Of a stretch of DNA of 64,000 nt, positions 7,692 through 56,524 are shown piece by piece. Made by a program: the position numbers and the translations under genes. Origin of the DNA: Treponema sp. (lineage in GTDB: Bacteria; Spirochaetota; Spirochaetia; Treponematales; Treponemataceae); NCBI GenBank assembly GCA_017470085.1, contig JAFUFE010000114.1, positions 1,721 to 65,720 on the forward strand, written 5' to 3'. The notes beneath the pieces were generated by a model that was given only the letters and a program-made list of their open reading frames with translations, searched no databases and was not told the origin of the DNA. How positions within the stretch are numbered: the first letter of the stretch is position 1; each line of letters begins with the position of its first letter.

Positions 7692-7976
7692 TCAAATACC
7701 TTCAAATGCCTGAATGGTTTCGCCATCAGCCACTCGCACGATAGCTTTTTTATATGAAGCAGTGCGTCCCGGCTTACCTCGCAGCCGCTTCATTTTTCCC
7801 ATGATGTTCATCGTGGTACATTTTACCACATGCACATTGAACAGACGGCGCACTGCCTCTTTAATCTGAAACTTGTTCGCATCAGGATGTACAATAAACA
7901 CATACTTATTTTGTTCGCGGAGCAAGTTCGCTTTTTCAGAGATGACCGGCTTAATCAGTACGTCCTCATATACCAT
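7692..7976 (-). CDS. rplW: 50S ribosomal protein L23
   Basis: 94-aa ORF at the operon position with KFQIKEAVRRLFNVHV. Confidence 0.93.
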   Translation of the reverse strand: MVYEDVLIKPVISEKANLLREQNKYVFIVHPDANKFQIKEAVRRLFNVHVVKCTTMNIMGKMKRLRGKPGRTASYKKAIVRVADGETIQAFEGI

Positions 7977-10936: not shown

Positions 10937-11550
10937 GATGCTCTCCTTGCCGGCTTCCTCACGCGCCGGCATTCTTTTTATATGTGATGCACTTTAAGCC
11001 AGAATACGTCATTCCCTAAAAGACAACGCCGCATTCGCATACACACTCAAAACTGACAGTACGCGCAGGTTTGATGACACGAGATGAATTACGGACAAGA
11101 ACGATACATTCCTTACCGACGCTTTATCAATTCAAAGCGTCGCCGGCCAGTACCACCGATCATCATCAAACGCTGCGTTTGACAACTGGTTTGGCATGCA
11201 AAGCCATTCGCTCAAAAATCGAGCCGGCAGATACCCGCGGTGCCATACCAGTCATACATCCGTTGCCGACGGCAACAGATAGCACCACGAAGCTGTATAA
11301 TCTGAATGCCAACATCGGCAAACTTTACGGTTATACCAGAGGAAATATCCTCTGCCTGCCTTTATACAGGGAACGTGCACACCAGATGCACGCCAATTAC
11401 ACGCGTTGGGAAAAATCACTTTTTCTCCACCGGTGTAAACACTTTTTCGCCCGCTCTATAAAGAAGCGTGACGTTCTTTATACACTTTTTAAGAAATAAA
11501 TGCAAGAGCCCCGGCATAAAAAATGTAAAAAAATAGCGCACATTTTCCGG

Positions 11551-12351
11551 TCAGTGGGCGTTCCCTTCCTGAATACCGTTATCTGTATTTTTGACAGGCT
11601 GCGAAACCTTCTTTATATAGAAAAGCGCATACCCTATGTAGAGCACGGTAATAATAAAACGCACAAGCCAATGCAGCGGTACATTGAAAAGTCCCAACAC
11701 CGTTTTAAGAACAGCACCGGGAAAGTGTGCCAATACAGCTATAGCGAACAGACTTTTTACTGAAATCGTACTACCCGCTATTTTTGCCAGTATCGTTCCT
11801 GTTACCACGTGAACAGCGCCCCAGAAGAGCGGCAGCACATACGCTCCAGCCACAATCACTACAGAAAAAAGTATCAGCACCAGCGGATATTTTCGAACAA
11901 ATCGCTCTGCAACTGCACTATTTATATCGAAAGATATGTTTTTATTGAACGGTATTATCCGTAGTTCGCCAGTACTTTTCACGCTGATTATTCCGTCTTT
12001 AAATAGGGCTATTATTTGGTCACTATCGCGACGCTCTGAATAGATGCTCAGAGCAGGATCAATGACGGCAATTTTTATTCCGGTGCGGCTTTCAAGCACC
12101 ACCCGTTCATCGTTTTTCACGGATAGCACGCCGTCCTGTATTCGCATGTCAGGAATCTGTTCCACGAGTGGATACACTTCATCTTTTACAAATGCAGAAA
12201 AAGAGATGCCGGTCTGCACTACTGAAGGAATTGAAACAATCGCCGCACACAAAAGCAATACGACAAAGATAGTATGCTCACCTTTTGCAACGGAGTAGTA
12301 TGCACTACCGTCAAAGAAACTTCTATACAGAATCGTTAATTTTCCTTTCAT
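11551..12351 (-). CDS. Polytopic membrane protein, DUF1189-like (family recalled from memory)
   Basis: ATG at 12351 is preceded by AGGAGA. The N-terminal loop-TM-extracytoplasmic segment followed by C-terminal TM helices resembles the YvdJ/DUF1189 architecture. Confidence 0.6.
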   Translation of the reverse strand: MKGKLTILYRSFFDGSAYYSVAKGEHTIFVVLLLCAAIVSIPSVVQTGISFSAFVKDEVYPLVEQIPDMRIQDGVLSVKNDERVVLESRTGIKIAVIDPALSIYSERRDSDQIIALFKDGIISVKSTGELRIIPFNKNISFDINSAVAERFVRKYPLVLILFSVVIVAGAYVLPLFWGAVHVVTGTILAKIAGSTISVKSLFAIAVLAHFPGAVLKTVLGLFNVPLHWLVRFIITVLYIGYALFYIKKVSQPVKNTDNGIQEGNAH

Positions 12352-12455
12352 TTCGCTCTCCTGATGCCGCATGACGGACTGTTCACATCACTATAAGTCG
12401 TCCGCGCAGATTTTGTCAACGTTCGTTGTGAGTATTTGTATGGACTACAATTTTG

Positions 12456-12484
12456 TTGATTTATATCTGCACATCTGTTATAAT
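12456..12484 (+). promoter_or_regulatory. Sigma-70-type promoter TTGATT-N17-TATAAT upstream of the chemoreceptor gene
   Basis: TTGATT at 12456-12461 and TATAAT at 12479-12484, preceded by TGT; lies 42 nt before the ATG. Confidence 0.55.
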
Positions 12485-12525
12485 TTATTTATAAAATTTT
12501 ATCCACACCCAGGAGGCACACCTCT

Positions 12526-14655
12526 ATGCCCACGCTCCCCAAGAACGCTCTGTCACAGAAACGGACAAATTCAATAACACGAAAATTGTTGCTACCGGTC
12601 ATTATTTTGGTACTGACGTTGTATGTGGTGCTGTTTTTCAATAATTGGTGGAGCATAAACAGTTTTTCAAAAAAGCAGGTGCAGTCGCTTGCAGACCTCA
12701 AACACATGATAGTTGTGAACACAATCAACAATTACACCGCAACGAGCACTATGCTCTTGGATTTCGTCCTGAACAACGAAGACATTGTACAGGCGTTCGC
12801 CGCGCAGGACAGGCAGGCATTGCTGGCGGCATCTTCCCCGCTTTGGAATATGATGCACCAAAAATACAATATTTCGCAATTTCATTTTCATACGCCCGAT
12901 TCGTTTTCGTACCTGCGCGTACAAAAGCCTGCCCAATATGGAGACGATTTGAGTTCGTTCCGTGCGACCGTTGTAGCGGCGAACAGGCAGCGTAAACGCA
13001 TCACAGGGCTTGAAGTTGGCGTCAGCGATTTAGGGTTCCGTGTGGTAACACCGGTGACCACAGCGAACGGTATTCACGCAGGAACAGTAGAAGTAGGGAT
13101 CGGCATCGGTGATACATTTATCGCTGAAGTCGCTGCAACGGCGCCGGCAGAAGCGCTCGACGGCGGCTTGAACATCGCCATTGCGGTACGCACCCTTTCC
13201 GGTGAATATAAAACTATGGGCAGTAATTTTTCCCGCGAACAGAATAACGACCACGAAACAATCATGCAGCAGCTGGCCGGAAAAAGTTCCTTCATTCATA
13301 CGGACAAGGACACCGTGTCCGCATATTATCCGCTCATCGATTTTTCCGACAACACCATCGGATATATACAATTCGGCTTCTCTATTGCGGCAATCAGGAC
13401 GGAACAGCTGACTTTCTTTGCGCGATTGCTCATCATTTATATCCTGACGCTGTTTCTATTCGTGCTGGTCATCAGCATGGTTTCACACCGCGTGCTCACC
13501 CGTCCGATTACGCAGACGGTTGCCGCGCTCAAAGACATCGCGCAGGGCGAGGGCGATTTGACGGTGCGACTGCCGGTTACGGGCAACGATGAAATCACCG
13601 ACCTGTCGTCGTACTTCAATCTGACGATAGAAAAAATCGGCAATCTGATTAAAGCGGTTGCCGCGAATACGGAAAGCATGCAGTCTATCGGGCATGAACT
13701 CTCAAGCAATACGACACAGACGGCGAGTGCGATACACGAAATAAACGCCAACATAAACGGTGTAAAGCGGCAAGCCGTTACGCAAGCGGCGAGCGTGACC
13801 GAGACAGCCGCCACGGTTGAAGAAATCATCCGCACTATCAGGCAGTTGAACGGAAACATCGAATCGCAAGCAGCAAGCGTGGAAGAATCGCTCGCATCAG
13901 TGGAGCAGATGGCAGCCAACATAAATGCAGTAACGGCGATGCTGCGGAAAAACAGCCTGCTGATTAAGGAAGTGTACGAGCAAACAGCAAACGGTAAGAA
14001 TGGCGCACGGACAACGAACGAATCGGTGAGCGAGCTCGCGGAGAAATCGGATTCGCTGTTTGAGGCGAGCAAAGTGATTCAGAACATTGCGGAGCAGACG
14101 AATTTACTCGCGATGAATGCGGCAATCGAGGCGGCGCATGCGGGGGAAAGCGGTAAAGGCTTTGCTGTGGTCGCCGACGAAATCAGAAAGCTTGCGGAAG
14201 AATCGAACATGCAGGGCAAGCAGATAGGCGGTGTTATAAACGAATCGCTACAGGTGATACGGCATATAACAGAAGCGGGGAATGGAGCAGAACAGACGTT
14301 TATCCATGTGTACGACCTTATGAGCGAACTGTCCGCGCAGGAGGAGCGGATACTGAACGCAATGCAAGAGCAAGAACACGGCAGTACGGAGATGTTGCAA
14401 GCAATCAGGGAAATAAACACGGTGACGGTGCAGGTACGGGACGGTTCAGCACAGATGCTCGCGGGCGGCGAGAATGTTGCAGTGGAGATGCACCGGCTCG
14501 ATGAGCTAACGCGCGTCATTACCGACAGCATGAACGAAATGTCTGTGGGAGCAGTACAAATTGACAACTCGGTGCAGGACATAAATACAATCGCCGCAAA
14601 AAACAAAAAGAGCACCGATGATCTTGCCGCGGAGATGAAAAAGTTCAAGGTGTAA
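12526..14655 (+). CDS. Methyl-accepting chemotaxis protein (periplasmic Cache-like sensor, HAMP, MA signalling domain)
   Basis: 709 aa with two TM segments flanking a ~270-aa sensor. HAMP-like segment is [24 protein letters not shown]; the conserved hairpin is [41 protein letters not shown] is AGGAGG. Confidence 0.92.
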
Positions 14656-14848
14656 CGTGTGTGCGGTTTTACGCGAAACGTGCTATCGTTTTCTCACATT
14701 TTAAACACCGGAAAATGTTTCTTAATTTTGAATCGTGAACGATGTTTCAAAATCGAAAGCTGTTCCAAACCGCGCGGTCACTTGAAGCGACGCTGCAAAA
14801 CGCACTGAAATGAGAACGTGCAATGAACGCTCCCGATGCAGAGTGTTC

Positions 14849-14879
14849 GGTGTGGTGGTGGTGTGTGTGTGGGGGGGGG
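14849..14879. repeat. Composite microsatellite: GT/GGT-rich run followed by G9
   Basis: Reads ggtgtggtggtggtgtgtgtgt then nine G (14871-14879). A near-identical (GT)4-G8 lies at 62836-62851. Confidence 0.9.
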
Positions 14880-14944
14880 ATCGCTCGTTCTCATACGATA
14901 TCGCAGTCGAGCATATCCCCTTATCTCGCCGCACGCATCGGGAC

Positions 14945-15205
14945 ATACGCCAGCCGCGTGGGCGGCGAGTGAAATAATTTCTACTCATGCAAACAGAGCG
15001 AAGCGACGTATACGCCAGTCGCGCAAGCGACGAGTTAGATAACTTCCTTACAGTAAACGACACGAAGTGGCGTATGCACCAGCCGCGCGAGCGGCGAGTC
15101 AAATAACTTTCATTCATGCAAACAGAGCGAAGCGACGTATACACAAGTCGCTCTGCCTGTCGCTAGCCGGTCAGTCGCGCACGCGAAAATTCATATAACT
15201 TTCTT
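14945..15205. repeat. Tandem array of ~64-65-bp repeats (3 good units plus a degenerate fourth)
   Basis: Units start at 14945, 15010, 15074 and 15139. Units 1 and 3 are near-identical, including CATGCAAACAGAGCGAAGCGACGTATAC. A related inverted copy lies at 39001-39135. Confidence 0.85.
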
Positions 15206-15419
15206 CTCTTTCGTGTCAAAATCATCTGCTTGTACCACAGAGTATATAGAACCAATTTTGATTTTCCATACGATGATGCACGTGCAGGCGCTGTTTTTCA
15301 ACAACGCCGTTTCAACTACACGAACACGGCGCTCCCGTCAAATGGGGTGACACACCGAAAGCTCGTTTTCACCCCAAACTGACCGACAGCGGATGCAGCG
15401 CCTGCGTCCATGCAGCAAC

Positions 15420-16370
15420 TTATACAGACGGTATTTCCCAGTTGAAAAATTTCCAATATGGGGCACCGACACGCTGTTTAAAATCCGTCATATCCTTTTG
15501 GCTCCAGTCATACACACCTTTCCCCGTTTTGACGCCCAGATTACTTTCTTCTACCAGCCTACTGACCAATGCCGGAACACCGGTCTCATTTGAGAGCGTC
15601 GGAAAAATCGTCTTGCTCACATTGTAGTTCAAATCCAGACCGCCATTGTCCATGTGCTCAAACAGGCCGATATGAGAATAACGCGGACAAAAGCTGTACA
15701 GCAAACAGGTATCTACATCTTCCGGACGCGCGATGCCTTGCTCCACAATGTTAACCGCTTCACGCCACAGCGCAAACTGCAATCGATTACCGATAAAGCC
15801 TGGTGCGCTTTTTTTCATAATGACCGGCTTTCGATCCAAATCTTCAAGCAATGTTTTGGCAAACGTCTTGACCGACTCATCTGTAGCGCTTCCGCCTGCA
15901 ATTTCAAAATACGGTACCAGATGTGGCGGGAAAAATGGATGTGTTACCACCAGACGGTCTTTATACTTTGTCATCTTTTCTGCCATAACATCCACTTCTA
16001 ACGCAGAAGACACCGAACAGATTGCGCGAACATTTGGACACGATGCTTCTATTTTTTGGAGTACCTCATGCTTGACGTCTACCTTTTCGACGACCGCCTC
16101 AAATATGACATCGCACGCCGCAAGCGCACTGTACTCCAACGAATATGATAGCTGCTGTTTGCAATAAGCAATCTGTCCCTCGTTGATACATGCCTGATCT
16201 TTTAAATCGTCAAGATATTTATCGTATTGCTTTTCGCTTGTCTGACGGAGTTCCTCATTCACTGCAAGAACGACGGTATCAAATCCGTGGCTGGTCGTCA
16301 AAACAGCAACACTTGTTCCAATCATTCCGGTACCAATAATGCCGATTTTTTTTACATTTTCACGATTCAT
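15420..16370 (-). CDS. NAD-dependent 3-hydroxyacyl(-CoA) dehydrogenase family protein (L-carnitine-dehydrogenase-like)
   Basis: ATG at 16370 follows GAGGAGG. Rossmann motif is KKIGIIGTGMIGTSVA; the 3HCDH C-terminal domain carries PGFIGNRLQFALWREA. Confidence 0.85.
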   Translation of the reverse strand: MNRENVKKIGIIGTGMIGTSVAVLTTSHGFDTVVLAVNEELRQTSEKQYDKYLDDLKDQACINEGQIAYCKQQLSYSLEYSALAACDVIFEAVVEKVDVKHEVLQKIEASCPNVRAICSVSSALEVDVMAEKMTKYKDRLVVTHPFFPPHLVPYFEIAGGSATDESVKTFAKTLLEDLDRKPVIMKKSAPGFIGNRLQFALWREAVNIVEQGIARPEDVDTCLLYSFCPRYSHIGLFEHMDNGGLDLNYNVSKTIFPTLSNETGVPALVSRLVEESNLGVKTGKGVYDWSQKDMTDFKQRVGAPYWKFFNWEIPSV

Positions 16371-16432
16371 ACAAACCTCCTCAAAAATGCAGCAACGCAG
16401 GCGGAGCACATGGGGTGCCGCCGTGCACGGTA

Positions 16433-17725
16433 TCACATATATCCCATAATTTTAAACAGTAGCAGTAAGATAATCATTGAAACCAACGACATAACCGGCA
16501 CCGTTAAGAACATCAAGAAGTATGATTTTTTATGCGTGGAGCCAGCAGCGGTAATCGCTGAATTGACGACGCTGTTATTGGGCAACGTGAAAATCATTGT
16601 TGACAACGCAATACCTCTGGTCAGCGCCTCAACGTTGGCACCCATCGGCACAAAGTATTCGTTAATGATTGGCAACGCCATACCTTCGCCGCCAGTTCCA
16701 GAGCCGCAGACACCCGCCAAAACCGCGACAATTACCACGGAAATAATAACGGGATTGCCGTTCATTCCAACAACTGCCTGTATCATGTTTTGAAACGCTT
16801 CGGTTGACTGCACAACGCCGCCAAATCCTACCGCAGAACAAGTGGCAACGAGCGCCGTCGTTCCGCCAACCACACCCATTTGGAGTTTCTGCCACATGCC
16901 GTCTTTCCAGGGCAAATACTTCGCGTAGAAAATGAGGGCTGCCACAATGCCGATTGTCATACCGACTGCAGCGTGTGCTTTTATAAAACCTAACGCGCAG
17001 ATTAAAATCGCCATTGGAATAATAGCAAGCAAAAAGCTGGGAGCGTTTTTGCGCTCTGCCGATTTTTCAGGTGCACCTGCCACATGGGGTTCATCCCAGC
17101 CGAGTCCCTTTTTCTTCGTATAATTCACGTACCACGAGCAAAGCACAATCTCAAGTATGATCTGTATACCGCCTGCGATAAATCCCGGGACGGCTGCTGC
17201 AAAGGTTGTCGTACCGAGCGCTTGAGCCGGAACCAGCAGCTGTATCGCTGGAGAGCCGGGCATCCACACCGTAAAGGAGCCTGCCGCCGCAACATAGATA
17301 CCGGGCGCTAACGTTGAAGATATATTCGCTTTTTTGAACAAAGAAAACATGAGCGGATACAACGTAAACATACCGATAAAGACGGAGATGCCTCCATAGC
17401 CCATAATGCCGCCTGCCAAAATAATCGCCGGCACGATTGCCTTTTCGCCGAGTTTGTCCACCACAAAATTAGCGATAGAATCCGCGGCTCCTGACAATTC
17501 AAGAATTTTTCCAAAAATTGCACCGAGCAAAAAAACTAAAAAATTACTCTGCACAAATCCGGCGAATGCTCCGGCAAAAGTTCCCGTTATGCCGCCCACC
17601 ACATCCATGTGTGCTGTTAGAAGAACAAAAACACTGGTGATGATTGCGCCAAAAAAAATCGGCACACCGCGGATACACAGAATCGTAATCAATATGATTG
17701 CTAAAATAAGAAATACTGTCTGCAT
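16433..17725 (-). CDS. GntP-family (gluconate/hydroxy-acid:H+) permease
   Basis: 430-aa polytopic protein with GntP-like N-terminus and G-rich TM segments; lies between the BKACE and dehydrogenase genes. Confidence 0.8.
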   Translation of the reverse strand: MQTVFLILAIILITILCIRGVPIFFGAIITSVFVLLTAHMDVVGGITGTFAGAFAGFVQSNFLVFLLGAIFGKILELSGAADSIANFVVDKLGEKAIVPAIILAGGIMGYGGISVFIGMFTLYPLMFSLFKKANISSTLAPGIYVAAAGSFTVWMPGSPAIQLLVPAQALGTTTFAAAVPGFIAGGIQIILEIVLCSWYVNYTKKKGLGWDEPHVAGAPEKSAERKNAPSFLLAIIPMAILICALGFIKAHAAVGMTIGIVAALIFYAKYLPWKDGMWQKLQMGVVGGTTALVATCSAVGFGGVVQSTEAFQNMIQAVVGMNGNPVIISVVIVAVLAGVCGSGTGGEGMALPIINEYFVPMGANVEALTRGIALSTMIFTLPNNSVVNSAITAAGSTHKKSYFLMFLTVPVMSLVSMIILLLLFKIMGYM

Positions 17726-17743
17726 GTATCTCCTCCGTACCGA

Positions 17744-18625
17744 TTATGCACTGTGCGGTATGTGCAAAATGTCACGCGCTTCATCAGGCGTTGCAACTTC
17801 CAACCCGAGCTCGTGGATAATCCGCACCGCACGCTCAACCATCTCGGCGTTGCTCTTCAAAAGCCGTCCCGGCGCATAGTAAATATTGTCTTCCATACCG
17901 ACGCGCGCGCCGCCACCTTTGAGGATCGTCATCGCCATACCCGGCACGTGATTTTTTGCACCGATGGAAATCGTAGAGAAATTCACAAATCGATCCCGCG
18001 GCAACTTTTTAATCATAAAGTCAAGATTCTCTTCAGAAAATGAAATGGCGCCCTGGCTGATTTTATCCATGCCCATAACAAATGAAAGCGAAACCGGATC
18101 AGAGAGACAGCCGGCCGGCTCCAGAACGTTGAATACATCTTCCACCGATGTCGGATCAAAACATTCAAGCTCCGGCTTAATGCCCATGTCTTTCATCATC
18201 TGCGCATATTTAATGAGGAACGGACGGTACCATTCATACACAAACGTGCGGTCTGCCCAGCTTGTCCCGATGAGCGAACAGTCAAGCGAACACATCTCTG
18301 GCTTCACCAAATCTTTATAGTACAGCAGCTGCATGCCGTCTTCCGCCGTCGTTCCGGCTTTATTTGCCGGCGCCGTTGAATACTGCAAGATGACGTTGCA
18401 TTTAGCCCGAATCCGCGAACCGATATCGCTGTATACGACGGGGTCATTCGTTGACTTCCCCGCTGTGTCACGTGCGTGAATGTGCACAATTGCCGCGCCT
18501 GCGTTATAGCAGTCATACGCCGATTGCGCAATCTCCTCCGGCTGCAGCGGAATATTCGGGTTCGCCTCTTTGCCGTGGAACGCGCCAGTCTGTGCCACCG
18601 TAATGATTACTTTCCTTGTCGCCAT
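17744..18625 (-). CDS. Beta-keto acid cleavage enzyme (BKACE / DUF849, 3-keto-5-aminohexanoate cleavage enzyme family)
   Basis: 293 aa. VIITVAQTGAFHGKEANPNIPLQPEEIAQSAYDCYNAGAAIVHIHARD is the typical BKACE N-terminus with metal-binding HxH. RBS is GGAGGT. Confidence 0.85.
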   Translation of the reverse strand: MATRKVIITVAQTGAFHGKEANPNIPLQPEEIAQSAYDCYNAGAAIVHIHARDTAGKSTNDPVVYSDIGSRIRAKCNVILQYSTAPANKAGTTAEDGMQLLYYKDLVKPEMCSLDCSLIGTSWADRTFVYEWYRPFLIKYAQMMKDMGIKPELECFDPTSVEDVFNVLEPAGCLSDPVSLSFVMGMDKISQGAISFSEENLDFMIKKLPRDRFVNFSTISIGAKNHVPGMAMTILKGGGARVGMEDNIYYAPGRLLKSNAEMVERAVRIIHELGLEVATPDEARDILHIPHSA

Positions 18626-18683
18626 AGTAATATACCTCCGTTTCGATTTGACAGTAAGAACTGCCTTTGCCGTTTATCACCGT

Positions 18684-18699
18684 AGCAAATTACATGCCA
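18684..18699 (-). promoter_or_regulatory. Sigma-54 (-24/-12) promoter of the BKACE operon
   Basis: Minus strand reads TGGCAT-GTAAT-TTGCT with exact GG-N10-GC spacing. The -12 element lies 58 nt upstream of the BKACE ATG. Confidence 0.8.
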
Positions 18700-18941
18700 A
18701 AAAATCAGTTTGTGGAGAAATATCGCCAAAATGCACTTTTTTGGCTCATTTCTGACACGATGTGGCACAAAATACACAAAAACTCCGGCTTACAGCACAG
18801 CATTCCCCGGATATTTTATGCATATCTGCATATGCATATATTCTCTTTTCTCCCAAAATATGCTATAATTGCTCACTGTATGCAGCAACTTGACAAAACC
18901 GTGGCTGCAGCATCGAGTCCCCAGGGAAACGGAAACACCGA

Positions 18942-20384
18942 ATGAGCGAGCCCCAAACAACCGTATTTCAAGACTCTACTTTGATGCGTTCTATTCTGGA
19001 CACGTCATTTGACGGCATTACCTATACCGACCGCACCGGTGTCATCATTTACAATAATCCGGCCTATTATAAAATCACCGGGCTGAACGAATCCGAACTG
19101 CTCGGAGAAAGTATCTTTTCCCTGGCAAGGAAAGGCTATCCCATATCGCGTATGGCACAGAAGGTTTTTCAGTCTCAAGAAACGTTGTCTCGAACAATCC
19201 GTTATCGCCCGGATTCCAATACGGAAGTTCTCGTTACCGTTGTACCGCGGTTTGATGATACTGGCACATTTAGCGGCATTATCGCCAACGTGCGCGACAT
19301 CACCATGTTGAACAGTCTCCGTAATCAAATGGACACCATCCATGCCACATATTCTGCAAAACTCCAGCGGCGCAAAGATGAAATAAAGCAGTTGAAAGAA
19401 CAAATTGCCCGCATACAGTTTAATCTTGACGATTACAATTTGGTCGGAAGAAGCCCAGAGATGCAGCAGCTGGTCGAGCTGGCACAGCGGATTGCACAGG
19501 TAGACAGCACCGTGCTTATTTTAGGCGAATCCGGCGTCGGCAAAGATGTATTTTGCAAGATGATAGGAAAATTTGCCGGCAAAGAAAACTACACAAAAAT
19601 TTCCTGTGGCGCGATCCCCGAAAGCCTATTGGAATCAGAGCTATTCGGCTATGAGGCGGGCTCCTTTACCGGAGCAAGCAAAACCGGTAAACCGGGCATA
19701 TTTTCTATAGCAGGGGACGGCATTGTGTTTTTAGACGAAATCGGAGAGTTGCCGCTTGCCATGCAGGTCAAATTGCTTACGGTGCTGCAGGATCGCCAGT
19801 TTTTTGCCATCGGTGGGAAAAAGCCGCTTCCCATGCGCGCACGCATTATTTCTGCAACGCACCGCGACTTAAAAACATTGGTTGCAGACGGCACATTCAG
19901 AGAAGATTTATACTACCGGTTGAACGTAATTCCGGTGCACATTCCTCCGCTCCGGGAACGCAAAGAAGATATTATGCCGATTGCCTGCCATCTGCTGGAA
20001 CGACTGAAGAAAAAATACAACCAGCAAAAAATAATCAGCAACGACTTAGCGAGTCTCCTCACTGCATACAACTGGCCGGGAAATATCCGCGAACTGCATA
20101 ATATATTGGAACGGATGTTCGTACTGTCTCCCCACATGACGCTGACGGCGCGGGACTTCCCCTGTGAATTGAACATCACAGGAGCAACAACCGGGCATGT
20201 CCCAGAAGCCCACAACTGTACGCTCAAAGAAATAACCGCGGCAACTGAAAAAGAGGCCATTACCGCCCGAATCCACCAAACAACAAATCTGCACGATGCG
20301 GCACAGAGTCTCGGTATCAACCTGTCTACGCTCGTCCGCAAGATGCAAAATATCATCTTTCTGCACGAGAACTCAAAAAAATAA
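18942..20384 (+). CDS. Sigma-54-dependent transcriptional activator (PAS sensor, AAA+ domain, Fis-type HTH)
   Basis: 480 aa. N-terminal PAS (ILDTSFDGITYTDRTGVIIYNNPAY), Walker A GESGVGKD, sigma-54 contact loop ESELFGYEAGSFTGA, C-terminal HTH LHDAAQSLGINLSTLVRKM. No receiver domain. Confidence 0.92.
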   Translation: MSEPQTTVFQDSTLMRSILDTSFDGITYTDRTGVIIYNNPAYYKITGLNESELLGESIFSLARKGYPISRMAQKVFQSQETLSRTIRYRPDSNTEVLVTVVPRFDDTGTFSGIIANVRDITMLNSLRNQMDTIHATYSAKLQRRKDEIKQLKEQIARIQFNLDDYNLVGRSPEMQQLVELAQRIAQVDSTVLILGESGVGKDVFCKMIGKFAGKENYTKISCGAIPESLLESELFGYEAGSFTGASKTGKPGIFSIAGDGIVFLDEIGELPLAMQVKLLTVLQDRQFFAIGGKKPLPMRARIISATHRDLKTLVADGTFREDLYYRLNVIPVHIPPLRERKEDIMPIACHLLERLKKKYNQQKIISNDLASLLTAYNWPGNIRELHNILERMFVLSPHMTLTARDFPCELNITGATTGHVPEAHNCTLKEITAATEKEAITARIHQTTNLHDAAQSLGINLSTLVRKMQNIIFLHENSKK

Positions 20385-20388
20385 ACGG

Positions 20389-22062
20389 CTACAGCGCACT
20401 ACAGAACGGGCGTTGGCGCTTTCTTCTGCACGATACATCGCCGTATATAATGAATCGTGCGCCGTTAAATACGGTATGCTGCACTTGGCCGTATGCTTTT
20501 GAACGGGAAAATTCCCCTCTACAAAAATCTGCCAACAGCATCGAACTGCCGTACGCAACAAGGTGCAGGCTGTCCTCTCCGCAGTGAACAGCCAACAGCA
20601 CGGCACATGCCAGATTATAGCCGATAAGTCCAATAATCACGGGAGAGACAATGCACATAATCAAACCGTACAGATACACCTTTTTGCTGTTACTGTATTC
20701 ATCGCCGTGCAACATTGCGATGCACCCGAATGACGACGGTAACAGGTATGCTGCCGCGCCGGCCATCGATGTACACAGGGCGATTGCCGCCGGATTGATA
20801 CGTCCACCGCTTGCAAGCCCGATGCTCACTCCCACCGTCGTCATCACCGTTATCGTTAACACATTCGACGCAAAGTTGGTCAAAAAAACGCTCACCATTG
20901 TAATAATCAGAACGACTACCAGCGGAGAAACGCGGTCAAGTACCGGTGTAATTTTTTCTGTAATAAAAACTGGGATGCCCGTTGCATCATTCGCCATAGC
21001 AGAACCAAGAAATACGCCGATAGAAATAAAAATCAGGATCCCCCAGTTTACATGGTGATTGACAATATCCTTTAAATCGATGATCGGTTTTTCATTTGTG
21101 CTTATAATCGACATCACCACGACTGCACAAATCGCCCAAAACGTAATGCCGTAACTGTTGATTGTGCCGACCCAGGGAGCATCGGTAAACATTCCCGCCA
21201 CGCCCGGCAGCATCCACATAATAACTGTTCCAAAGAACACAATAACCGTAATGAGTTCTTTTACCTGCATCGGCCCGCGATGTGCAAGCACTTTCTGTAC
21301 ATCAAAATCTTTGAACCGGCTCATGTCGGGATGCGCGGCAAAGCGCATAATAAGTGTCAGCGCCACAAACAGCACCAATCCTGTCGGCACGCCGACCACT
21401 AGATACGTAAACAGGCTAATCGGTACCCCCGTCGCTCCTTCATAAATCGCCATTCCAAGAATCGCAAGCGAATGAGAAATCGGTGTCATTAAACCGCCGA
21501 TGATAACTCCGTATACCACCATGATATTCGCAACATGCGGATACGCATCTTGCTCTGTATACCCCAGCTCCTGATACACCCGCCGCGAAAACATAAGCAT
21601 AAACGCAGTTGCAGGAATCTGGTCAATAAAGCTTGCGAGAATCAAACCGATGACTGCCATTGCCACGGTAAATGTCCACGGGCTTTTTGATACAAGCCGC
21701 ATGCTCATAAACCGGGCAACCAGTCGGTCGGTAAACCCTGACTCGTTGAGCGCATGCGTCATCACAAAGCTCATCAAAACAAAAAAGACAATCCAGCTGC
21801 CCATCGTCCCGCCGATGGCACCATTTAACGACGTTACACCGGTCCGGGACAGCAACACAATCGCAAGCACTGCCGGCCATACCGTGTCAACCAGTGAAAG
21901 CAATAGAATTGTCCCTATAAAGACACCCAACACCCGCATGCCAATAACGGTCATCGGCGGCGCTGGCGGAATAAACCAAAACGCCAGTATGACGGCAAAA
22001 CATATCACCGTTGTGATAATCGTCGGTTTTTTAAATTGGATTCGCTCTTTGCTGCTTTCCAT
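20389..22062 (-). CDS. DASS/SLC13-like (ArsB/NhaD superfamily) anion:cation symporter
   Basis: 557-aa polytopic protein with an FASNV hairpin-type motif. The last ~65 aa are non-hydrophobic and may be a read-through tail. Confidence 0.75.
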   Translation of the reverse strand: MESSKERIQFKKPTIITTVICFAVILAFWFIPPAPPMTVIGMRVLGVFIGTILLLSLVDTVWPAVLAIVLLSRTGVTSLNGAIGGTMGSWIVFFVLMSFVMTHALNESGFTDRLVARFMSMRLVSKSPWTFTVAMAVIGLILASFIDQIPATAFMLMFSRRVYQELGYTEQDAYPHVANIMVVYGVIIGGLMTPISHSLAILGMAIYEGATGVPISLFTYLVVGVPTGLVLFVALTLIMRFAAHPDMSRFKDFDVQKVLAHRGPMQVKELITVIVFFGTVIMWMLPGVAGMFTDAPWVGTINSYGITFWAICAVVVMSIISTNEKPIIDLKDIVNHHVNWGILIFISIGVFLGSAMANDATGIPVFITEKITPVLDRVSPLVVVLIITMVSVFLTNFASNVLTITVMTTVGVSIGLASGGRINPAAIALCTSMAGAAAYLLPSSFGCIAMLHGDEYSNSKKVYLYGLIMCIVSPVIIGLIGYNLACAVLLAVHCGEDSLHLVAYGSSMLLADFCRGEFSRSKAYGQVQHTVFNGARFIIYGDVSCRRKRQRPFCSAL

Positions 22063-22090
22063 AACGGTACCCCCTTGTCACCAATGCTTT

Positions 22091-22106
22091 TGCAAGAAAC
22101 GTGCCA
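22091..22106 (-). promoter_or_regulatory. Sigma-54 (-24/-12) promoter of the DASS permease gene
   Basis: Minus strand reads TGGCACG-TTTC-TTGCA, a full consensus. It lies 28 nt upstream of the ATG at 22062, with AAGGGGG as RBS. Confidence 0.82.
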
Positions 22107-22556
22107 AGTGCCAAACGGGGTAAAACGGATGTTTTATATGCAAATTTAGGCATTATTGGCTTTTGTATATATGCAATAATGCATATATACAACGTGCGAT
22201 GACTGCATGAGCCACGTGTGCCGCCCTGTTTACAAAAAGGAAAAATATAAATTCCCGCAAACTGCATTGTCCGCGTGAACTTAAAGGCGGCTGCCCCGCT
22301 CTTATGCTGACGGACAGCGTACACGCGCTCATCGTCCCCGCCGGCGGCACACTCGCGCGCGTCAGACAACATAATTTCTGATCGCATGGTGAGCCGCATA
22401 TCGTTGGGCACAGCGTGCGGCTATCTGCTGGTAAGACAGCTTGCGCGCAGTACAGCTGCCGCTTATACGTAACGATGTGTGCCCGCCACGTCCGGGGCAA
22501 ACTATCGGAAAAAATGCCCCTGCCAGAAGACACAGCCGGCCGAATTTTCGTATAGT

Positions 22557-22572
22557 TGGCACACAATTTGCT
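22557..22572 (+). promoter_or_regulatory. Sigma-54 (-24/-12) promoter of the CoA-transferase gene
   Basis: Plus strand reads TGGCAC-ACAAT-TTGCT; 121 nt upstream of the ATG at 22694. Confidence 0.8.
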
Positions 22573-22693
22573 AATATATTGATATACGCTCGCCGCTTTC
22601 TTTTTGAAATCGTCGGCTATACGATAAGCTCATTGTACTACACGGCATGCCCGTACAAAGCGGTAGCGCCGATCAGAATGGAGGATGTATTTT

Positions 22694-24256
22694 ATGAAAA
22701 TTATCACTGCACCAGAAGCCGCAGCGCTGCTGCAAGACAACACGACCGTTGCATTCGGCGGCTTCGGTTCATACAACGGTCCTGACGAACTGCTCCAAGC
22801 GGTTGCCGACCGATTTGCCCAGGAAGCACACCCAAAAGGATTGACCGCTGTCTGCGGCGTCAGTCCTGGAGACAACAGCAAAACGACACAACAAGGCTTA
22901 AACCGCATTGCGCGAACAGGACTGCTCGATACCGTTATTGCTGGACACCTTGCAAACCCGCCGTTGATTGCGGAACTCATCGGTACGAACCAAATCGCCG
23001 GATACGCAATACCGATCGGCGTCATGGTACACCTGTGGCGCGCAATCGCAGGTCATAAACCTGCCGTTATCACGCCGGTTGGACTTGAAACGTACGCTGA
23101 CCCCCGTATTGAAGGATGCAAGGCAAATCAAAAAGCAAGTGAGCAGAACCGAGACATCGTCAGCGTCATTACATTGGACGGAAACGAATACCTGAGCTAC
23201 AAGACCTTTCCCATACACGCCTGCATGATTCGTGCCACCTACGCAGATGAGGACGGAAATATTTCCATGGAGCAAGAAGGAACCGGCGACTATGCGTATG
23301 AAATAGCGGCTGCAACGCACAACAGCGGCGGCACGGTCATTGTACAAGTGAAAGAGATTGTTAAGCGCGGTACACTCAATCCAAAATCAGTGCGCATTCA
23401 CCACCCGATGGTTGATTACGTTGTTAAAAATACTGACCCAGCGCTCCATATGCAAAGTTACGCGTTCCATTATCGCCCCGAAGTCTCTGGTCAAGTGCAA
23501 GTGCCGCTCACGTCACTGCCGCCCATGCCACTGACCAACCGGAAAATCATTGCGCGCAGAAGTGCGCTGGAACTCACAAGCGGCTGCCTGATAAATCTCG
23601 GCATTGGTATGCCGTCTGGCATCAGCAGCGTTGCAAACGAAGAGGGGCTTGCCCACCACATGACGCTGTCCGTCGAGTCTGGGCCACAGGGGGGCGTTCC
23701 CATAGAAGGCATGGGGTTTAGCGGCGCCGTAAATCCTGAAATCATTTACAACATGGGTGATGTATTCGACATGTACGACGGCGGCATTTTAGACATGACG
23801 TTTTTAGGCGCCGCAGAAATCGACCAATACGGAAACGTCAATGTCTCCAAATTCGGCACGCGCTGCACCGGTCCTGGTGGATTCATCAATATTTCACAGA
23901 ATACAAAACAAATATTTTTTGTTGGCACTTTCACCGCAGGCGGGCTGGAAGAAAAAATCGAAGACGGGAAGCTTATTATCGTACACGAGGGGACCAGCAA
24001 AAAGTTCATCAACCGTGTGCAGCAAATTACATTTTCCGGACACTATGCGCGCACCCACAACCAGCAGGTTACCTTTATCACCGAACGCGCAGTTTTTAAA
24101 CTGACAGACAACGGATTACTGCTAACTGAAATAGCACCGCACATCGATGTCCAAAAAGACATTCTTGATCACATGGAATTTATACCAGCCATAGCGGACA
24201 ATCTACGATTCATGGACGAACGCATATTCCGCCCAGAAAAAATGGGACTTGCGTAA
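22694..24256 (+). CDS. Acyl-CoA:carboxylate CoA-transferase (propionate/acetate CoA-transferase, YdiF/Pct family)
   Basis: About 520 aa. MKIITAPEAAALLQDNTTVAFGGFG and the later SVESGPQGG / GPGGFINI segments are typical of the fused family I CoA-transferases. GGAGGA lies 9 nt before the ATG. Confidence 0.85.
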   Translation: MKIITAPEAAALLQDNTTVAFGGFGSYNGPDELLQAVADRFAQEAHPKGLTAVCGVSPGDNSKTTQQGLNRIARTGLLDTVIAGHLANPPLIAELIGTNQIAGYAIPIGVMVHLWRAIAGHKPAVITPVGLETYADPRIEGCKANQKASEQNRDIVSVITLDGNEYLSYKTFPIHACMIRATYADEDGNISMEQEGTGDYAYEIAAATHNSGGTVIVQVKEIVKRGTLNPKSVRIHHPMVDYVVKNTDPALHMQSYAFHYRPEVSGQVQVPLTSLPPMPLTNRKIIARRSALELTSGCLINLGIGMPSGISSVANEEGLAHHMTLSVESGPQGGVPIEGMGFSGAVNPEIIYNMGDVFDMYDGGILDMTFLGAAEIDQYGNVNVSKFGTRCTGPGGFINISQNTKQIFFVGTFTAGGLEEKIEDGKLIIVHEGTSKKFINRVQQITFSGHYARTHNQQVTFITERAVFKLTDNGLLLTEIAPHIDVQKDILDHMEFIPAIADNLRFMDERIFRPEKMGLA

Positions 24257-24319
24257 CAGGTAACAGGCGGCGGTGTACTCCGCGCCTACGCGCAGAATGC
24301 GCACAAGTGAATAGCTCGA

Positions 24320-24368
24320 ATAACGCACGAGCCCCTGAACGCTTTGCGTTCAGGGGCTCGTGCGTTAT
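24320..24368. terminator. Perfect 23-bp stem / 3-nt loop hairpin between convergent genes (likely bidirectional terminator)
   Basis: ATAACGCACGAGCCCCTGAACGC-TTT-GCGTTCAGGGGCTCGTGCGTTAT; lies between the CoA-transferase stop and the rpsG stop. No clear U-tract on either side. Confidence 0.6.
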
Positions 24369-24401
24369 AGCTTGTATTATACCCGTTTTGATGCCGAACG
24401 C

Positions 24402-40171: not shown

Positions 40172-40528
40172 ATGCTCGTGCCGTATCGTACGGAAAAGCA
40201 CTGCGCACGGAAGCGTTTTGCAATTATTCTTTTGTAAACTCACAAATCATTAAAATTGTCAAAAAAAATCTTGACATATGGGAATTGTAGTATATCATTT
40301 ATTATTATACATATTTATATATCTACTTAAGGAGGTGTGGCCTATACGTATAGAATACGGTACTGCCGTTGAAATGACGGCGTTTTGCTGTGTGTGTCGC
40401 TCGTGTGGACACGATGTATCCAGACTGTACCGACGAATAGACCGCACCGCAACACCTGCAACTTTTGGGTATACGTGAAGCATTCGAAAACAACGTTTCA
40501 AACAGCAGTAATTTTACAGGAGGTTTTT

Positions 40529-41860
40529 ATGAGTTTATTTGGTATTATTGCGGGGCTTGCTGTACTTGTCATTCTGACGTACAAAAATATGTCTATCCTC
40601 TGGGTAGCACCGATTGCAGCATTGGTTGTCGCAATTTTAGGTAAATTAAATCTGCTTGATGCGTATTTAGTTAACTACATGACCGGATTCGGCAATTATG
40701 CAAAATCGTGGTTTCCTATCTTCATGCTCGGTGCTATCTTCGGAAAATTGATGGACATCACGGGGGCAGCACGCGCTATCGGGAAATGGCTTTCCAGCTT
40801 TATGGGACCAAAACTCGCTATCGCAGCAGTTGTCATCACATGTGGTTTGCTTACCCTCGGTGGCATCTCGCTCTTTGTCGTTGTCTTCGTTATGTACCCG
40901 CTCGGCATAGAGCTTTTCCGCGAGGCAAACATCAGCCGCCGTCTGCTTCCGGGCGCTATTGCAGCAGGTGCGTTTACATTCTCCATGACTGCTATACCGG
41001 GCTCTCCGCAGCTGACAAACATCATCCCGACCCAGTACTTCGGAACAACCGCTACGGCAGCGCCGATTATCGGTAGCGTGTGCGCCATCATCATGGCGGC
41101 GTGCAGCATTCTCTGGTTGCAGTACCGCGCAAAGAAATTTGCCGCACGGGGCGAAGTATTTACAGAGCCCACAAATTTGAAGGCGGTTGACCCGAACGAA
41201 ACGCTGCCGGCATGGTTCCTTGCGTTGATCCCGCCGGTAGTAACAATCATACTGTACAACGTCATCAACCACATTCCTCGATTAGGTTTGAATACCACGC
41301 AGTCACTCGTTATCGGCCTGTTGGTTGGCATTGTGCTGTTGCTTGCGCTCTTTTTCAAACGGCTTGGCTCATTCAAAGATTTTGTTAGTACAATCAATGA
41401 AGGTGCGCACGGCTCTATGGCGGCTATTTTGAACACATCGGCAGGCGTTGGCTTTGGCGCAGTTGTTCAGGCAGTTCCCGGCTTCCAGACACTTGCTGGC
41501 ATTATGACCGGTGCCACAGGTATGCCGCCGCTCCTGGCAGAAGCAATCGGCATCAACGTGTTGGCAGGTGCAACGGGTTCTTCTTCGGGCGGTCTTTCAA
41601 TCGGGCTTTCTGCACTGCAAGACCAGCTCCTTGCGGCATCTGCTTCTTCGGGCATCTCTGTAGAAGCGTTCCACCGCGTTGCATCTATTGCAGCAGGCGG
41701 TCTCGATTCGCTCCCACAGTGCGGCGCAGTCATCACGTTGCTCGCTGTGTGCGGCCTCACAAACAAGGATTCGTACGCGGACATCGGCATGTGCTGCTGT
41801 GTGTTCCCGATTTTTGCTTGTATCGTCGCTATCATACTCGGCTCTATCGGTATTGTGTGA
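40529..41860 (+). CDS. GntP-family permease (second copy in window)
   Basis: ATG at 40529 follows AGGAGG. The polytopic 443-aa protein is MSLFGIIAGLAVLVILTYKN...; the ORF track extends 48 codons upstream. Confidence 0.8.
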   Translation: MSLFGIIAGLAVLVILTYKNMSILWVAPIAALVVAILGKLNLLDAYLVNYMTGFGNYAKSWFPIFMLGAIFGKLMDITGAARAIGKWLSSFMGPKLAIAAVVITCGLLTLGGISLFVVVFVMYPLGIELFREANISRRLLPGAIAAGAFTFSMTAIPGSPQLTNIIPTQYFGTTATAAPIIGSVCAIIMAACSILWLQYRAKKFAARGEVFTEPTNLKAVDPNETLPAWFLALIPPVVTIILYNVINHIPRLGLNTTQSLVIGLLVGIVLLLALFFKRLGSFKDFVSTINEGAHGSMAAILNTSAGVGFGAVVQAVPGFQTLAGIMTGATGMPPLLAEAIGINVLAGATGSSSGGLSIGLSALQDQLLAASASSGISVEAFHRVASIAAGGLDSLPQCGAVITLLAVCGLTNKDSYADIGMCCCVFPIFACIVAIILGSIGIV

Positions 41861-55003: not shown

Positions 55004-56524
55004 CTACGATACGTCCGCCACCGTCTCGCCGCCCGACATTTTCTTTTCGAGCTTCGTCATCAAAAGCGGGCTTAAGATGCCGAACACGCAGAGCGCAATG
55101 AGCACCCAGCACACTGGCGATGAAAAGAATATCGCGGGGCTGCCGCCTGAAAGCAAAAGCGAGCGGCGCAAGCCTTTTTCGCCGAGCGGTCCCAGAATGA
55201 GCGCGAGCACGATTGCCGCATTGTTGAGTTCAAACTTGCGCACCAGATAACCGAGCACGCCAAAAATCATCATGATTACTACGTCGGCGTAGATTTTGCG
55301 GATGGCGAACGAGCCGACAATGCACAGCACAATGATGCACGGAATCAAAATCGCGTCAGAGAGCTTGGCGATTTTTGCAAAGCCTTTGCAGCCGAGTAAG
55401 CCTATGCCGAGCATAAAAAACTGCACGAGCACAAATCCTGCAAAAAACGTGTACGTCATCGGCGCGTATTTGGTGAACAAGTCCGCGCCTGGCTGCAATC
55501 CTTGAATAATCAAGCCGCCCATCAAAATCGCCGTGACAGATTCGCCGGGAATGCCGAGCGTGAGCATGGGGATGAGCGAGCCGCCGGTGACCGCGTTGTT
55601 CGCAGATTCGCTTGCAGCAACTCCTTCGATTGAGCCGGTGCCGAATTCGCTGCCATGCTTTGAAAGCTGCTTGTTCGTGTTGTAGCTCATAAAGCACGCG
55701 ATTGACGCGCCTGCGCCCGGCAGTATGCCGATGATGTTGCCGATAATCCAGCCGCGCAAAATCGTGGGCGTAATCTGCTTCACCTCTGTGCCGGAGATGA
55801 CCATGCGGTCTTTTACTTTTGTTGCGTCCTGCCGCTTTACAATCGCTTTTTCCGCAAGAATGAGCGCCTGCGACATCGAGAACAAACCGATGAGCGCGCA
55901 CGTCACGTTGATGCCCTCATAGAGCGAATCCTGTCCGAACATAAAGCGCGGCACGCCGTTCATCGGATCCATGCCGATTGTCGAAATCAAAAGACCGAGC
56001 GCGCCGCTCATCAATCCTTTGAGCATGCTCTTTGTTGAAACGCCCGCGATAATCGTAAGGCCGAAAATCGAGAGCCAAAAATATTCGGGCTGGCGAAATT
56101 TCATGGCGAGCTGCGCAAGGAGCGGTGCGAAAAAGTAGAGCGAAACGCAGCTTAAAAGTCCGCCGCAGAACGACGAAAAACATGAGACTGCGAGCGCCTT
56201 TCCCGCCTTGCCCTGCTTTGTCAGCTCGTAGCCGTCAAGTGCGGTTGCAGCGGACGCGGGCGTTCCCGGCGTGTGGATGAGGATTGCGGAAATCGAACCG
56301 CCGAAGATTGCGCCGCAGTAAATGCCGCCGAGCACGATAAGCCCGGTAGACGCGTCCATCGAAAACGTCATCGGCAGCAGGAGCGCGACGCCCATCGCGG
56401 CAGAAAGCCCCGGCAGGCAGCCGATGACAATGCCGAGCGCAGTGCTCAACGCCATGGCAAGAAGGTTGCCTGGCGAAAGTGCGTTGATAAAGCCCGCGCC
56501 CATTAAAGATATAGTTTCCAGCAT
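55004..56524 (-). CDS. tctA: Tripartite tricarboxylate transporter large permease TctA
   Basis: 506-aa polytopic protein with the N-terminus MLETISLMGAGFINALSPGNLLAMALSTALGIVIGCLPGLS, typical of TctA. Confidence 0.88.
   Translation of the reverse strand: MLETISLMGAGFINALSPGNLLAMALSTALGIVIGCLPGLSAAMGVALLLPMTFSMDASTGLIVLGGIYCGAIFGGSISAILIHTPGTPASAATALDGYELTKQGKAGKALAVSCFSSFCGGLLSCVSLYFFAPLLAQLAMKFRQPEYFWLSIFGLTIIAGVSTKSMLKGLMSGALGLLISTIGMDPMNGVPRFMFGQDSLYEGINVTCALIGLFSMSQALILAEKAIVKRQDATKVKDRMVISGTEVKQITPTILRGWIIGNIIGILPGAGASIACFMSYNTNKQLSKHGSEFGTGSIEGVAASESANNAVTGGSLIPMLTLGIPGESVTAILMGGLIIQGLQPGADLFTKYAPMTYTFFAGFVLVQFFMLGIGLLGCKGFAKIAKLSDAILIPCIIVLCIVGSFAIRKIYADVVIMMIFGVLGYLVRKFELNNAAIVLALILGPLGEKGLRRSLLLSGGSPAIFFSSPVCWVLIALCVFGILSPLLMTKLEKKMSGGETVADVS

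Follow-up and report, generated by a model that had tools for sequence, protein, structure and literature searches.

A probable sigma-54-dependent catabolic regulon inserted between rpsG and tuf in a Treponema genome

In a 64,000-nucleotide stretch of Treponema sp. DNA (contig JAFUFE010000114.1, positions 1,721 to 65,720; hereafter the window), three sigma-54 promoters surround a single gene for a sigma-54 enhancer-binding protein, and lead into genes for two permeases, a fused CoA-transferase, a 3HCDH-family dehydrogenase and an enzyme of the BKACE family. The question raised by this locus is whether these elements belong to one regulatory circuit, where the block came from and what kind of compound it serves. 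The evidence presented below makes it probable that the block is a self-contained, horizontally acquired catabolic regulon under one sigma-54 activator. Each of the three transcription units ends at a convergent gene, so that the regulon in the window consists of six genes, including that of the activator. A first-pass annotation of the sequence had proposed that a BKACE operon, a CoA-transferase and two permeases form a local regulon; this proposal is supported by comparative genomics, the gene set, the promoters and an upstream palindrome all being conserved in other genomes.

The three -24/-12 elements (Table 1) were compared with the sigma-54 consensus YTGGCACG-N4-TTGCW, which has GG at -24, GC at -12 and a fixed spacing. 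All three show the consensus distance between the GG and the GC, at exactly the coordinates and on the strands given by the first-pass annotation, and all three are preceded by a T, which extends the upstream half to TTGGCA. The BKACE promoter is an exact match to TTGGCATNNNNNTTGCT, a consensus from Clostridiales (PMC6615313). The strict pattern TGGCAY-N5-TTGCW occurs three times in the 64 kb, against 0.28 occurrences expected, and none of 100 shuffled sequences contained three. The three promoters are its sole matches in the whole window, in line with the earlier remark that the other operons are not preceded by such a motif. Looser patterns show no excess over chance across the window, with four matches to TGGC-N7-TTGCW (2.4 expected) and six to TGGCAC-N5-TTGCW with one mismatch (3.4 expected). 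All three promoters lie inside the two intergenic regions that flank the activator gene, which sum to 938 bp, and each is oriented into a gene; by our own arithmetic, the window-wide rate would give about 0.004 strict matches in these 938 bp. If position -12 is assigned to the C of the GC element, leader lengths of about 48 nt for BKACE, 18 nt for the DASS permease and 111 nt for the CoA-transferase would follow. An AAGGGGG sequence is found ahead of the DASS start codon at 22062, while the 111-nt CoA-transferase leader has no Rfam match and a fold that is not unusual (z = 0.42).

The AAA+ sigma-54 interaction domain of the activator (PF00158, residues 167-332) scores 202 bits against a cut-off of 20.2, with the full model covered. 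The Walker A motif (GESGVGKD, at 195), the Walker B motif (VFLDEI) and the GSFTGA loop (at 240) are all intact, and Pfam and NCBIfam scans reveal no receiver domain. The architecture of PAS, AAA+ and helix-turn-helix domains, with this Walker A motif and loop and without a receiver, had been read from the letters alone and is present as described; the domain scan also confirms that this is the single sigma-54 activator of the block. Its PAS domain represents a distinct subfamily with nine invariant positions across 22 sequences, and is predicted to sense a small molecule. The recognition helix of the carboxy-terminal helix-turn-helix reads STLVRK, with STL[VIE]RK as the conserved family form. 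Two named activators were considered and rejected as identities: PrdR (NCBIfam NF041552, 383 bits against a cut-off of 795, with no prd genes near) and AtoC (278 bits against 714, the match beginning at model position 120 and the PAS domain taking the place of the receiver). After the recognition helix the window protein ends in QNIIFLHENSKK (20340-20384), where nine relatives carry a basic K(Y/H)xLPxRY(K/R) tail; this difference could alter the DNA contacts.

The activator gene is preceded by an extended -10 element of likely sigma-70 type (Table 1), which was missed by a two-hexamer scan and has a poor -35. Its position suggests that expression of the activator would be independent of sigma-54, with autorepression possible from candidate site 1 described below. 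In a related locus of Flavonifractor sp. AGMB03687 (L003/L013), a strict -24/-12 element at 7933-7948 (+) of L003 is oriented towards the activator gene itself, so that positive autoregulation through sigma-54 is suggested for that organism, in contrast to the sigma-70-type promoter of the window.

A palindrome of the form TnnGCA-N4-TGCnnA, located upstream of the promoters, is the putative binding site of the activator. Only two exact copies of TATGCA-N4-TGCATA are present in the window, where 0.00 would be expected. Measured from the GG of the respective promoter, the centre of site 1 is about 127 bp upstream of the BKACE element and that of site 2 about 73 bp upstream of the DASS element; site 1 also adjoins the -35 region of the promoter of the activator gene. 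A 16-mer identical to window positions 22170-22185 is present in Fusibacter ferrireducens (L017, 3283-3298), where it occurs once in 14 kb, between divergent sigma-54 promoters, and a second Fusibacter (L018) has the near-identical TATGCAAAAATGCATA. The form TGCGCA-N4-TGCGCA is found in relatives of high GC content; in L005 it reads TGCGCA-TAAA-TGCGCA, with the same 6-N4-6 geometry as in the window. In the Firmicute loci, the 6-mers with the highest enrichment (7-8-fold) ahead of the sigma-54 promoters combine to give AAATGCGCAAA. The core GCA-W4-TGC occurs 13 times in the 5.7 kb made up of the 300 bp upstream of the family promoters and six times in the other 213 kb, an enrichment of about 80-fold (Poisson 6e-21); the core was defined from these same loci, and the AT-rich nature of intergenic DNA inflates counts of this kind. 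The core is shared by the window and eight of 12 other locus groups, and it fits the conserved STL[VIE]RK helix. Distances from site to promoter are 73-220 bp, compatible with the 100-250 bp usual in Clostridiales (PMC6615313).

A possible degenerate second copy of site 2 is located at about 22137-22155. The word TGCGCGCA at 22442, of which L019 has a similar version, was considered as a nearer site for the CoA-transferase promoter and rejected; it occurs seven times in the window and is probably there by chance. The spacer between the DASS and CoA-transferase genes contains about 340 bp of GC-rich DNA (22200-22540, GC about 0.55) without a recognisable activator site. Its open reading frames have no Pfam match, the spacer has no Rfam match, and it has no counterpart in the relatives, where the divergent promoters are about 300 bp apart.

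Table 1. Promoters, candidate operator sites, genes and boundaries of the locus, in window coordinates.
Feature	Position	Strand	Description
Promoter of the BKACE-GntP-dehydrogenase operon	18699-18684	-	TGGCATGTAATTTGCT; TTGGCAT-GTAAT-TTGCT; -24/-12 element
Promoter of the DASS permease gene	22106-22091	-	TGGCACGTTTCTTGCA; TTGGCACG-TTTC-TTGCA; -24/-12 element
Promoter of the CoA-transferase gene	22557-22572	+	TGGCACACAATTTGCT; TTGGCAC-ACAAT-TTGCT; -24/-12 element
Candidate activator site 1	18817-18838		TATGCA-TATC-TGCATA (core 18817-18832) with overlapping TGCATA half-site
Candidate activator site 2	22163-22192		Perfect 13-nt inverted repeat TTGTATATATGCA-ATAA-TGCATATATACAA; core TATGCAATAATGCATA at 22170-22185
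Sigma-54 enhancer-binding protein (activator), 480 aa	18942-20384	+	PAS 14-122, AAA+ 167-332, AAA lid, Fis-type helix-turn-helix 435-469
Extended -10 of the activator gene promoter	18861-18869	+	TGcTATAAT, read from the sequence; likely sigma-70-type, putative function
BKACE (PF05853)	17744-18625	-	267 bits over the whole model; HxH and MED motifs kept
GntP-family permease, 430 aa	16433-17725	-	By Pfam/NCBIfam; likely hydroxy-monocarboxylate importer (predicted)
3HCDH-family dehydrogenase	15420-16370	-	Probably acts on a free 3-hydroxy acid, not on acyl-CoA (predicted)
DASS-family (Na_sulph_symp/CitMHS) anion permease, 557 aa	20389-22062	-	By Pfam/NCBIfam
Fused family-I CoA-transferase, 520 aa	22694-24256	+	Likely acetoacetate/acyl-CoA CoA-transferase (predicted)
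Insertion in the rpsG-tuf spacer, about 12.9 kb	11541-24401 (approximate)		From synteny; carries the regulon, the chemoreceptor and the DUF1189 gene
DUF1189 gene	11551-12372	-	Inside the insertion
dCache_3-HAMP-MCP chemoreceptor	12526-14655	+	Inside the insertion; convergent on the BKACE operon

Relatives of the locus were collected as activator homologues with their gene neighbourhoods; a scan of reference genomes gave matches with an alignment of six PAS sequences, and none with the whole activator alone. The nearest homologues of the activator are about 51% and at most 53% identical, and those with names are mostly from Clostridia. The combination of activator, BKACE, DASS permease, CoA-transferase (or phosphotransacylase and kinase) and sigma-54 promoters is found in L005, L006, L007, L008/L014, L010, L017, L018, L019 and L021, while L003/L013 has the activator and a sigma-54-preceded DASS gene with no BKACE within reach. 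Strict -24/-12 matches are located ahead of operons in every non-redundant locus group. As in the window, a sigma-54 promoter precedes BKACE in L005, L006, L007, L010, L012 and L019, DASS genes in L003/L013, L010 and L021, and the CoA-transferase in L005, L006, L007, L008, L014, L019 and L021.

The gene order varies among these loci. In L006, a dehydrogenase-GntP-BKACE unit is divergent from CoA-transferase-DASS-activator; in L007, L008/L014 (F. plautii ATCC 29863) and L019 (Intestinimonas), DASS-BKACE is divergent from CoA-transferase-DASS-activator; and in L005 the activator is followed by DASS-BKACE, divergent from the CoA-transferase. Divergent pairs of sigma-54 promoters are frequent, 294-313 bp apart, or 198 bp in L009. 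The genes for the GntP permease and the dehydrogenase are found together in L006 and L010 as well. The window DASS permease is 59-64% identical to those of the related clusters, and the window CoA-transferase 65-67% identical to those of L006, L008, L014 and L019. BKACE is unusually conserved, with 83-90% identity to hundreds of proteins, across phyla, from gut metagenomes and Oscillospiraceae (P0123-P0240); for the activator, the identity to its nearest relatives is about 51%, and for the other four proteins it is 58-69% in the loci with those BKACEs. These BKACE relatives are named only '3-keto-5-aminohexanoate cleavage protein', a name from the lysine pathway that is probably wrong for them.

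In L010 and in the Fusibacter loci L017 and L018, the place of the CoA-transferase is taken by a phosphotransacylase and a homologue of acyl kinases. In these low-GC relatives, genes of the Acetate_kinase and PTA_PTB families are part of a sigma-54-driven operon (L017, 3375-6955; L010, 2023-3105 and 6059-6949), and the replacement implies that ATP would be made from the acyl-CoA product. Additional genes for phenolic-acid decarboxylase subunits of the UbiD, UbiX (Flavoprotein), EcdD/BsdD or LpdD type are present in L007 (1-2059), L008 (9632-10024) and L021 (629-2679 and 8990-10641), which hints at aromatic or polyphenol-derived acids. A further module, made up of genes for an ILVD_EDD dehydratase, glyoxalase and dehydrogenase, is found in L003 and L005.

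The block interrupts the conserved supercluster of rpoBC and ribosomal protein genes as an insertion. The window EF-Tu shares 91-94% identity with proteins of Treponema, those of T. parvum and T. ruminis among them. Both T. parvum (L024) and a sister metagenome-assembled genome (L025) have the order rpoB-rpoC-rpsL-rpsG followed, after 0.55-0.64 kb, by tuf-rpsJ; the corresponding distance between rpsG and tuf in the window is 13.4 kb. Window positions 10937 to about 11540 align with the ancestral spacer, which, given the short spacer of the relatives, identifies about 11541-24401 as inserted DNA. No integrase, tRNA or flanking repeat was seen for the insertion, and it carries no compositional sign of transfer: the GC content of the block (0.48-0.51) matches that of the host, so that the insertion is probably not recent. 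Judging from the relatives, Clostridia are the apparent source from which the block was taken up in one piece.

A perfect inverted repeat of 23 bp with a 3-nt loop (24320-24368) separates the CoA-transferase gene from the convergent rpsG gene, at the edge of the insertion, and resembles a bidirectional terminator. The chemoreceptor encoded in the insertion might sense the same compound as the regulon. In the ENA assembly (L001) it is present as two open reading frames of 95 and 600 aa, and the assemblies may differ by a frameshift. Elsewhere in the window, a second GntP-family permease (40385-41860, +) and a TctA tricarboxylate transporter subunit (55004-56524, -) are encoded, neither of them with a sigma-54 motif.

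The gene identities of the first-pass annotation (BKACE, GntP, dehydrogenase, activator, DASS and CoA-transferase) are right by Pfam. Two gene starts were corrected: the CoA-transferase probably begins at the ATG at 22694 (with GGAGG at 22680-22684) and the dehydrogenase probably at 16370. More specific identities were rejected against the NCBIfam equivalog cut-offs. The best NCBIfam match of BKACE is Kce of lysine fermentation (NF052387), with 235 bits against a cut-off of 382 and no kam or kdd genes near; the triacetate acetoacetate-lyase TAL (NF053538) reaches 164 bits against 430, with no PGR or DPGC neighbours, and a 3-oxoadipate-type enzyme 169 against 350. The CoA-transferase scores 408 bits as FadX (cut-off 750), and the dehydrogenase 99-121 bits as a carnitine dehydrogenase (cut-offs 414-592). 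The HIH and MED motifs of BKACE align with HLH and FED of Kce, while the glutamate of the Kce TGAE motif aligns with a phenylalanine (TGAF). In Kce, this glutamate contacts the amino group of the substrate.

When the dehydrogenase is aligned with Hbd of C. butyricum, a pairwise comparison that is only indicative, the CoA-contacting residues Lys56 and Asn221 correspond to Cys61 and Cys228. With both residues replaced by cysteine, the enzyme is probably not a 3-hydroxyacyl-CoA dehydrogenase acting on CoA thioesters; its closest solved relative acts on a free acid. By the same loss of CoA-contact residues, Zhou et al. 2023 (PMC10470551) identified TfD as a dehydrogenase of free 3-hydroxy acids, and for phloroglucinol the order of dehydrogenase, BKACE and either activation of acetoacetate or use of the acyl-CoA is documented there. 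For deoxyribonate, the order of dehydrogenase, BKACE and acetoacetate activation is likewise documented (bioRxiv 10.1101/205583). The enzyme set of the window would fit a route of this kind, from a free beta-hydroxy acid via a beta-keto acid to acetoacetate and acyl-CoA.

From these elements the following circuit can be proposed. The activator gene would be transcribed from its own sigma-70-type promoter with the extended -10, and its product would bind as a dimer or oligomer to the palindromes at 18817-18832 and 22170-22185. The PAS domain would receive the signal, most likely a substrate or intermediate of the pathway, upon which the AAA+ domain, with ATP, would open the complexes of sigma-54 RNA polymerase, the sigma factor presumably being supplied by the host, at the three -24/-12 promoters. 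The BKACE-GntP-dehydrogenase operon, the DASS permease and the CoA-transferase would in this way be switched on. A beta-hydroxy acid would then enter through the GntP permease, the DASS permease or both, and the 3HCDH-like enzyme would oxidise it in its free form to the beta-keto acid. BKACE, with acetyl-CoA, would cleave the latter to acetoacetate and a shortened acyl-CoA, and the CoA-transferase would move CoA onto acetoacetate or recycle CoA.

Sigma-54 control of an acetoacetate CoA-transferase is familiar from the E. coli AtoSC-atoDAEB system, in which the response regulator AtoC receives its phosphate from the kinase AtoS. The likeness is that a sigma-54 activator turns on an acetoacetate-handling CoA-transferase and a transporter; the window protein, however, has a PAS domain and no receiver, and acetoacetate is the predicted product of BKACE rather than the imported substrate. 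The design resembles more generally that of the Clostridiales, where the reconstruction by Nie, Dong & Yang (2019; PMC6615313) arrived at 39 groups of activators. A PAS domain is present in 357 of their 387 one-component sigma-54 activators; most of the activators control adjacent operons, and 35% of all activators have two to six operons under their control. Like the window protein, the PAS activators AhcR (atoE-hbd-cotX), CrbR (cotX-gntT), XcgR, YctR and PrdR combine PAS, AAA+ and helix-turn-helix domains, the last of Fis type, without a receiver. Their regulons have one to six adjacent target operons, promoters of the TTGGCAT-N5-TTGCT type and palindromic upstream sites, and the targets include CoA-transferases of acyl-CoA fermentation and GntP-type permeases, as here (PMC6615313).

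There are also differences. None of the 39 groups has a BKACE or the gene set of the window, the supplement of that study has no entry for BKACE, kce or TGCGCA, and the window palindrome differs from the TGT-N10-12-ACA common to fifteen of the groups (PMC6615313). The hosts are also different, Clostridiales in that study and a spirochaete here, and no paper pairing BKACE with sigma-54 was found in the literature searched. The impression of the first-pass annotation that this combination is not a described system is borne out, as far as those 39 groups go. The design is the commonest kind of Clostridiales sigma-54 activator, which makes the locus less unusual than that annotation implied.

The pathway itself can be set beside four others. 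TfD and TAL of anaerobic phloroglucinol degradation in Clostridium scatologenes (PMC10470551) likewise comprise a 3HCDH enzyme without the CoA-binding residues, which oxidises a free 3-hydroxy acid, followed by a BKACE that uses acetyl-CoA; a CoA-transferase then activates the acetoacetate, or phosphotransacylase and kinase make use of the acyl-CoA. The window differs in having no phloroglucinol reductase or cyclohydrolase nearby, and in permeases that suggest an imported acid; in the available part of that paper only a transcriptional regulator of the cluster is mentioned, and sigma-54 was not seen. Kce shares with the window BKACE the fold, the family, the HxH and E-D motifs and the reaction type (beta-keto acid and acetyl-CoA to acetoacetate and acyl-CoA), but genes for lysine aminomutase and 3,5-diaminohexanoate dehydrogenase are lacking near the latter. 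The deoxyribonate route of Price et al. (bioRxiv 10.1101/205583) and the carnitine route also combine a transporter, a dehydrogenase forming a beta-keto acid, a BKACE and acetoacetate activation. The former, however, has an SDR dehydrogenase and MFS transporters and is found in Proteobacteria, and for the latter, the window dehydrogenase is far below the carnitine dehydrogenase models.

Several observations weigh against the regulon proposed here. By a Pfam scan and a check of the open reading frames, rpoN is not located in the window, so that the sigma-54 factor would have to come from the host, and no direct statement on rpoN in Treponema was found in the literature searched. Two window reading frames of 483 and 491 aa, considered as rpoN, turned out to encode a beta-CASP RNase and a GntP permease instead. 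The activator has GSFTGA in place of the canonical GAFTGA, a variant that is also found in homologues such as P0002, P0009 and P0016, and its HTH_8 match is marginal (22.4 bits against a Pfam cut-off of 22). None of the window proteins reaches an NCBIfam equivalog cut-off, the core motif is absent from four locus groups (L009, L011, L012 and L021), and, besides the way in which that core was defined, the CoA-transferase promoter has site 2 as its closest palindrome, about 380 bp upstream and farther away than usual. That the block, being an insertion apparently of Firmicute origin, is a silent relic in a host without sigma-54 or unable to use these promoters, with the elements as recent leftovers or the genes read from other promoters, would agree with the absence of rpoN from the window; it is nevertheless very improbable. 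All six reading frames are intact, the GC content argues for long residence, and the three promoters, like the two palindromes, show few or no deviations. The activator has diverged far from any relative, yet has kept every motif. Sigma-54 is established in other spirochaetes, for instance Borrelia and Leptospira, and T. pallidum and T. denticola encode RpoN. The long distance to site 2, across 340 bp of GC-rich DNA without a site, also leaves room for an activator that governs only two of the three promoters, the third being under another activator, very weakly activated or non-functional, the more so as the divergent promoters of the relatives are merely 198-313 bp apart. We consider this unlikely. 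In L005, L006, L007 and L019 the CoA-transferase promoter belongs to a divergent sigma-54 pair with a shared upstream region, which makes co-regulation the ancestral state, and the island holds no second activator gene. Enhancer-binding proteins of the NtrC type can act over longer distances. Published sites reach -290 from the start codon (PMC6615313 supplement).

The pathway could also be a known BKACE pathway under another name, be it lysine fermentation (Kce), the tail of phloroglucinol degradation (TfD and TAL, fed by ring-opened products of neighbours), or carnitine or deoxyribonate breakdown. Kce is after all the best NCBIfam match of BKACE, the dehydrogenase and BKACE belong to the same two families as TfD and TAL, phenolic-acid decarboxylase genes occur in some related clusters, Flavonifractor is a known flavonoid and phloroglucinol degrader (PMC10470551), and the GntP permease would be in keeping with a sugar acid, for instance deoxyribonate. 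Set against this are the scores of BKACE and the dehydrogenase, far under the curated cut-offs. No kamA, kamDE or kdd (lysine), PGR or DPGC (phloroglucinol) or glycerate kinase genes are found nearby, in the window or in the related neighbourhoods, and the near-universal DASS permease points to an anionic, possibly dicarboxylic substrate; a known pathway is, on balance, improbable. As to the signal, PAS domains commonly sense redox or energy, a point raised for the Clostridial activators by Nie et al. (PMC6615313), and the PAS domain might report a general state (redox, oxygen or energy, via a cofactor) or relay the signal of another protein, in which case the system would not be a simple substrate-induced one-component system. 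This is unlikely for the present activator, which is always found with the same catabolic genes and has a conserved PAS subfamily, as is usual for substrate-specific inducers, and whose island encodes no partner kinase or anti-activator. A one-component regulon induced by its own substrate or an intermediate remains the reading that we prefer.

This regulon appears not to have been described, though its type is very common in Clostridia: the sigma-54 design is standard, and the regulon, its candidate operator motif and its host are new. It leaves the understanding of sigma-54 control unchanged, being a solid new instance and no new principle, and adds an activator group with its binding motif to the catalogue of Clostridial sigma-54 regulons. 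A wider interpretation, held tentatively and in our judgement just short of probable, is that the related loci encode a widespread, uncharacterised fermentation route of gut anaerobes for a beta-hydroxy or beta-keto acid, possibly a dicarboxylate or polyphenol-derived, that the PAS activator with its TnnGCA-N4-TGCnnA palindrome defines a new activator group, and that the Treponema copy is a complete circuit that was moved between phyla and still works. The pathway is abundant in gut metagenomes and probably misnamed there, and a single activator, presumably ligand-sensing, would offer a practical route to its substrate. For the spirochaete, the locus is a case of transfer in which a whole regulatory circuit has been placed in the conserved junction between rpsG and tuf.

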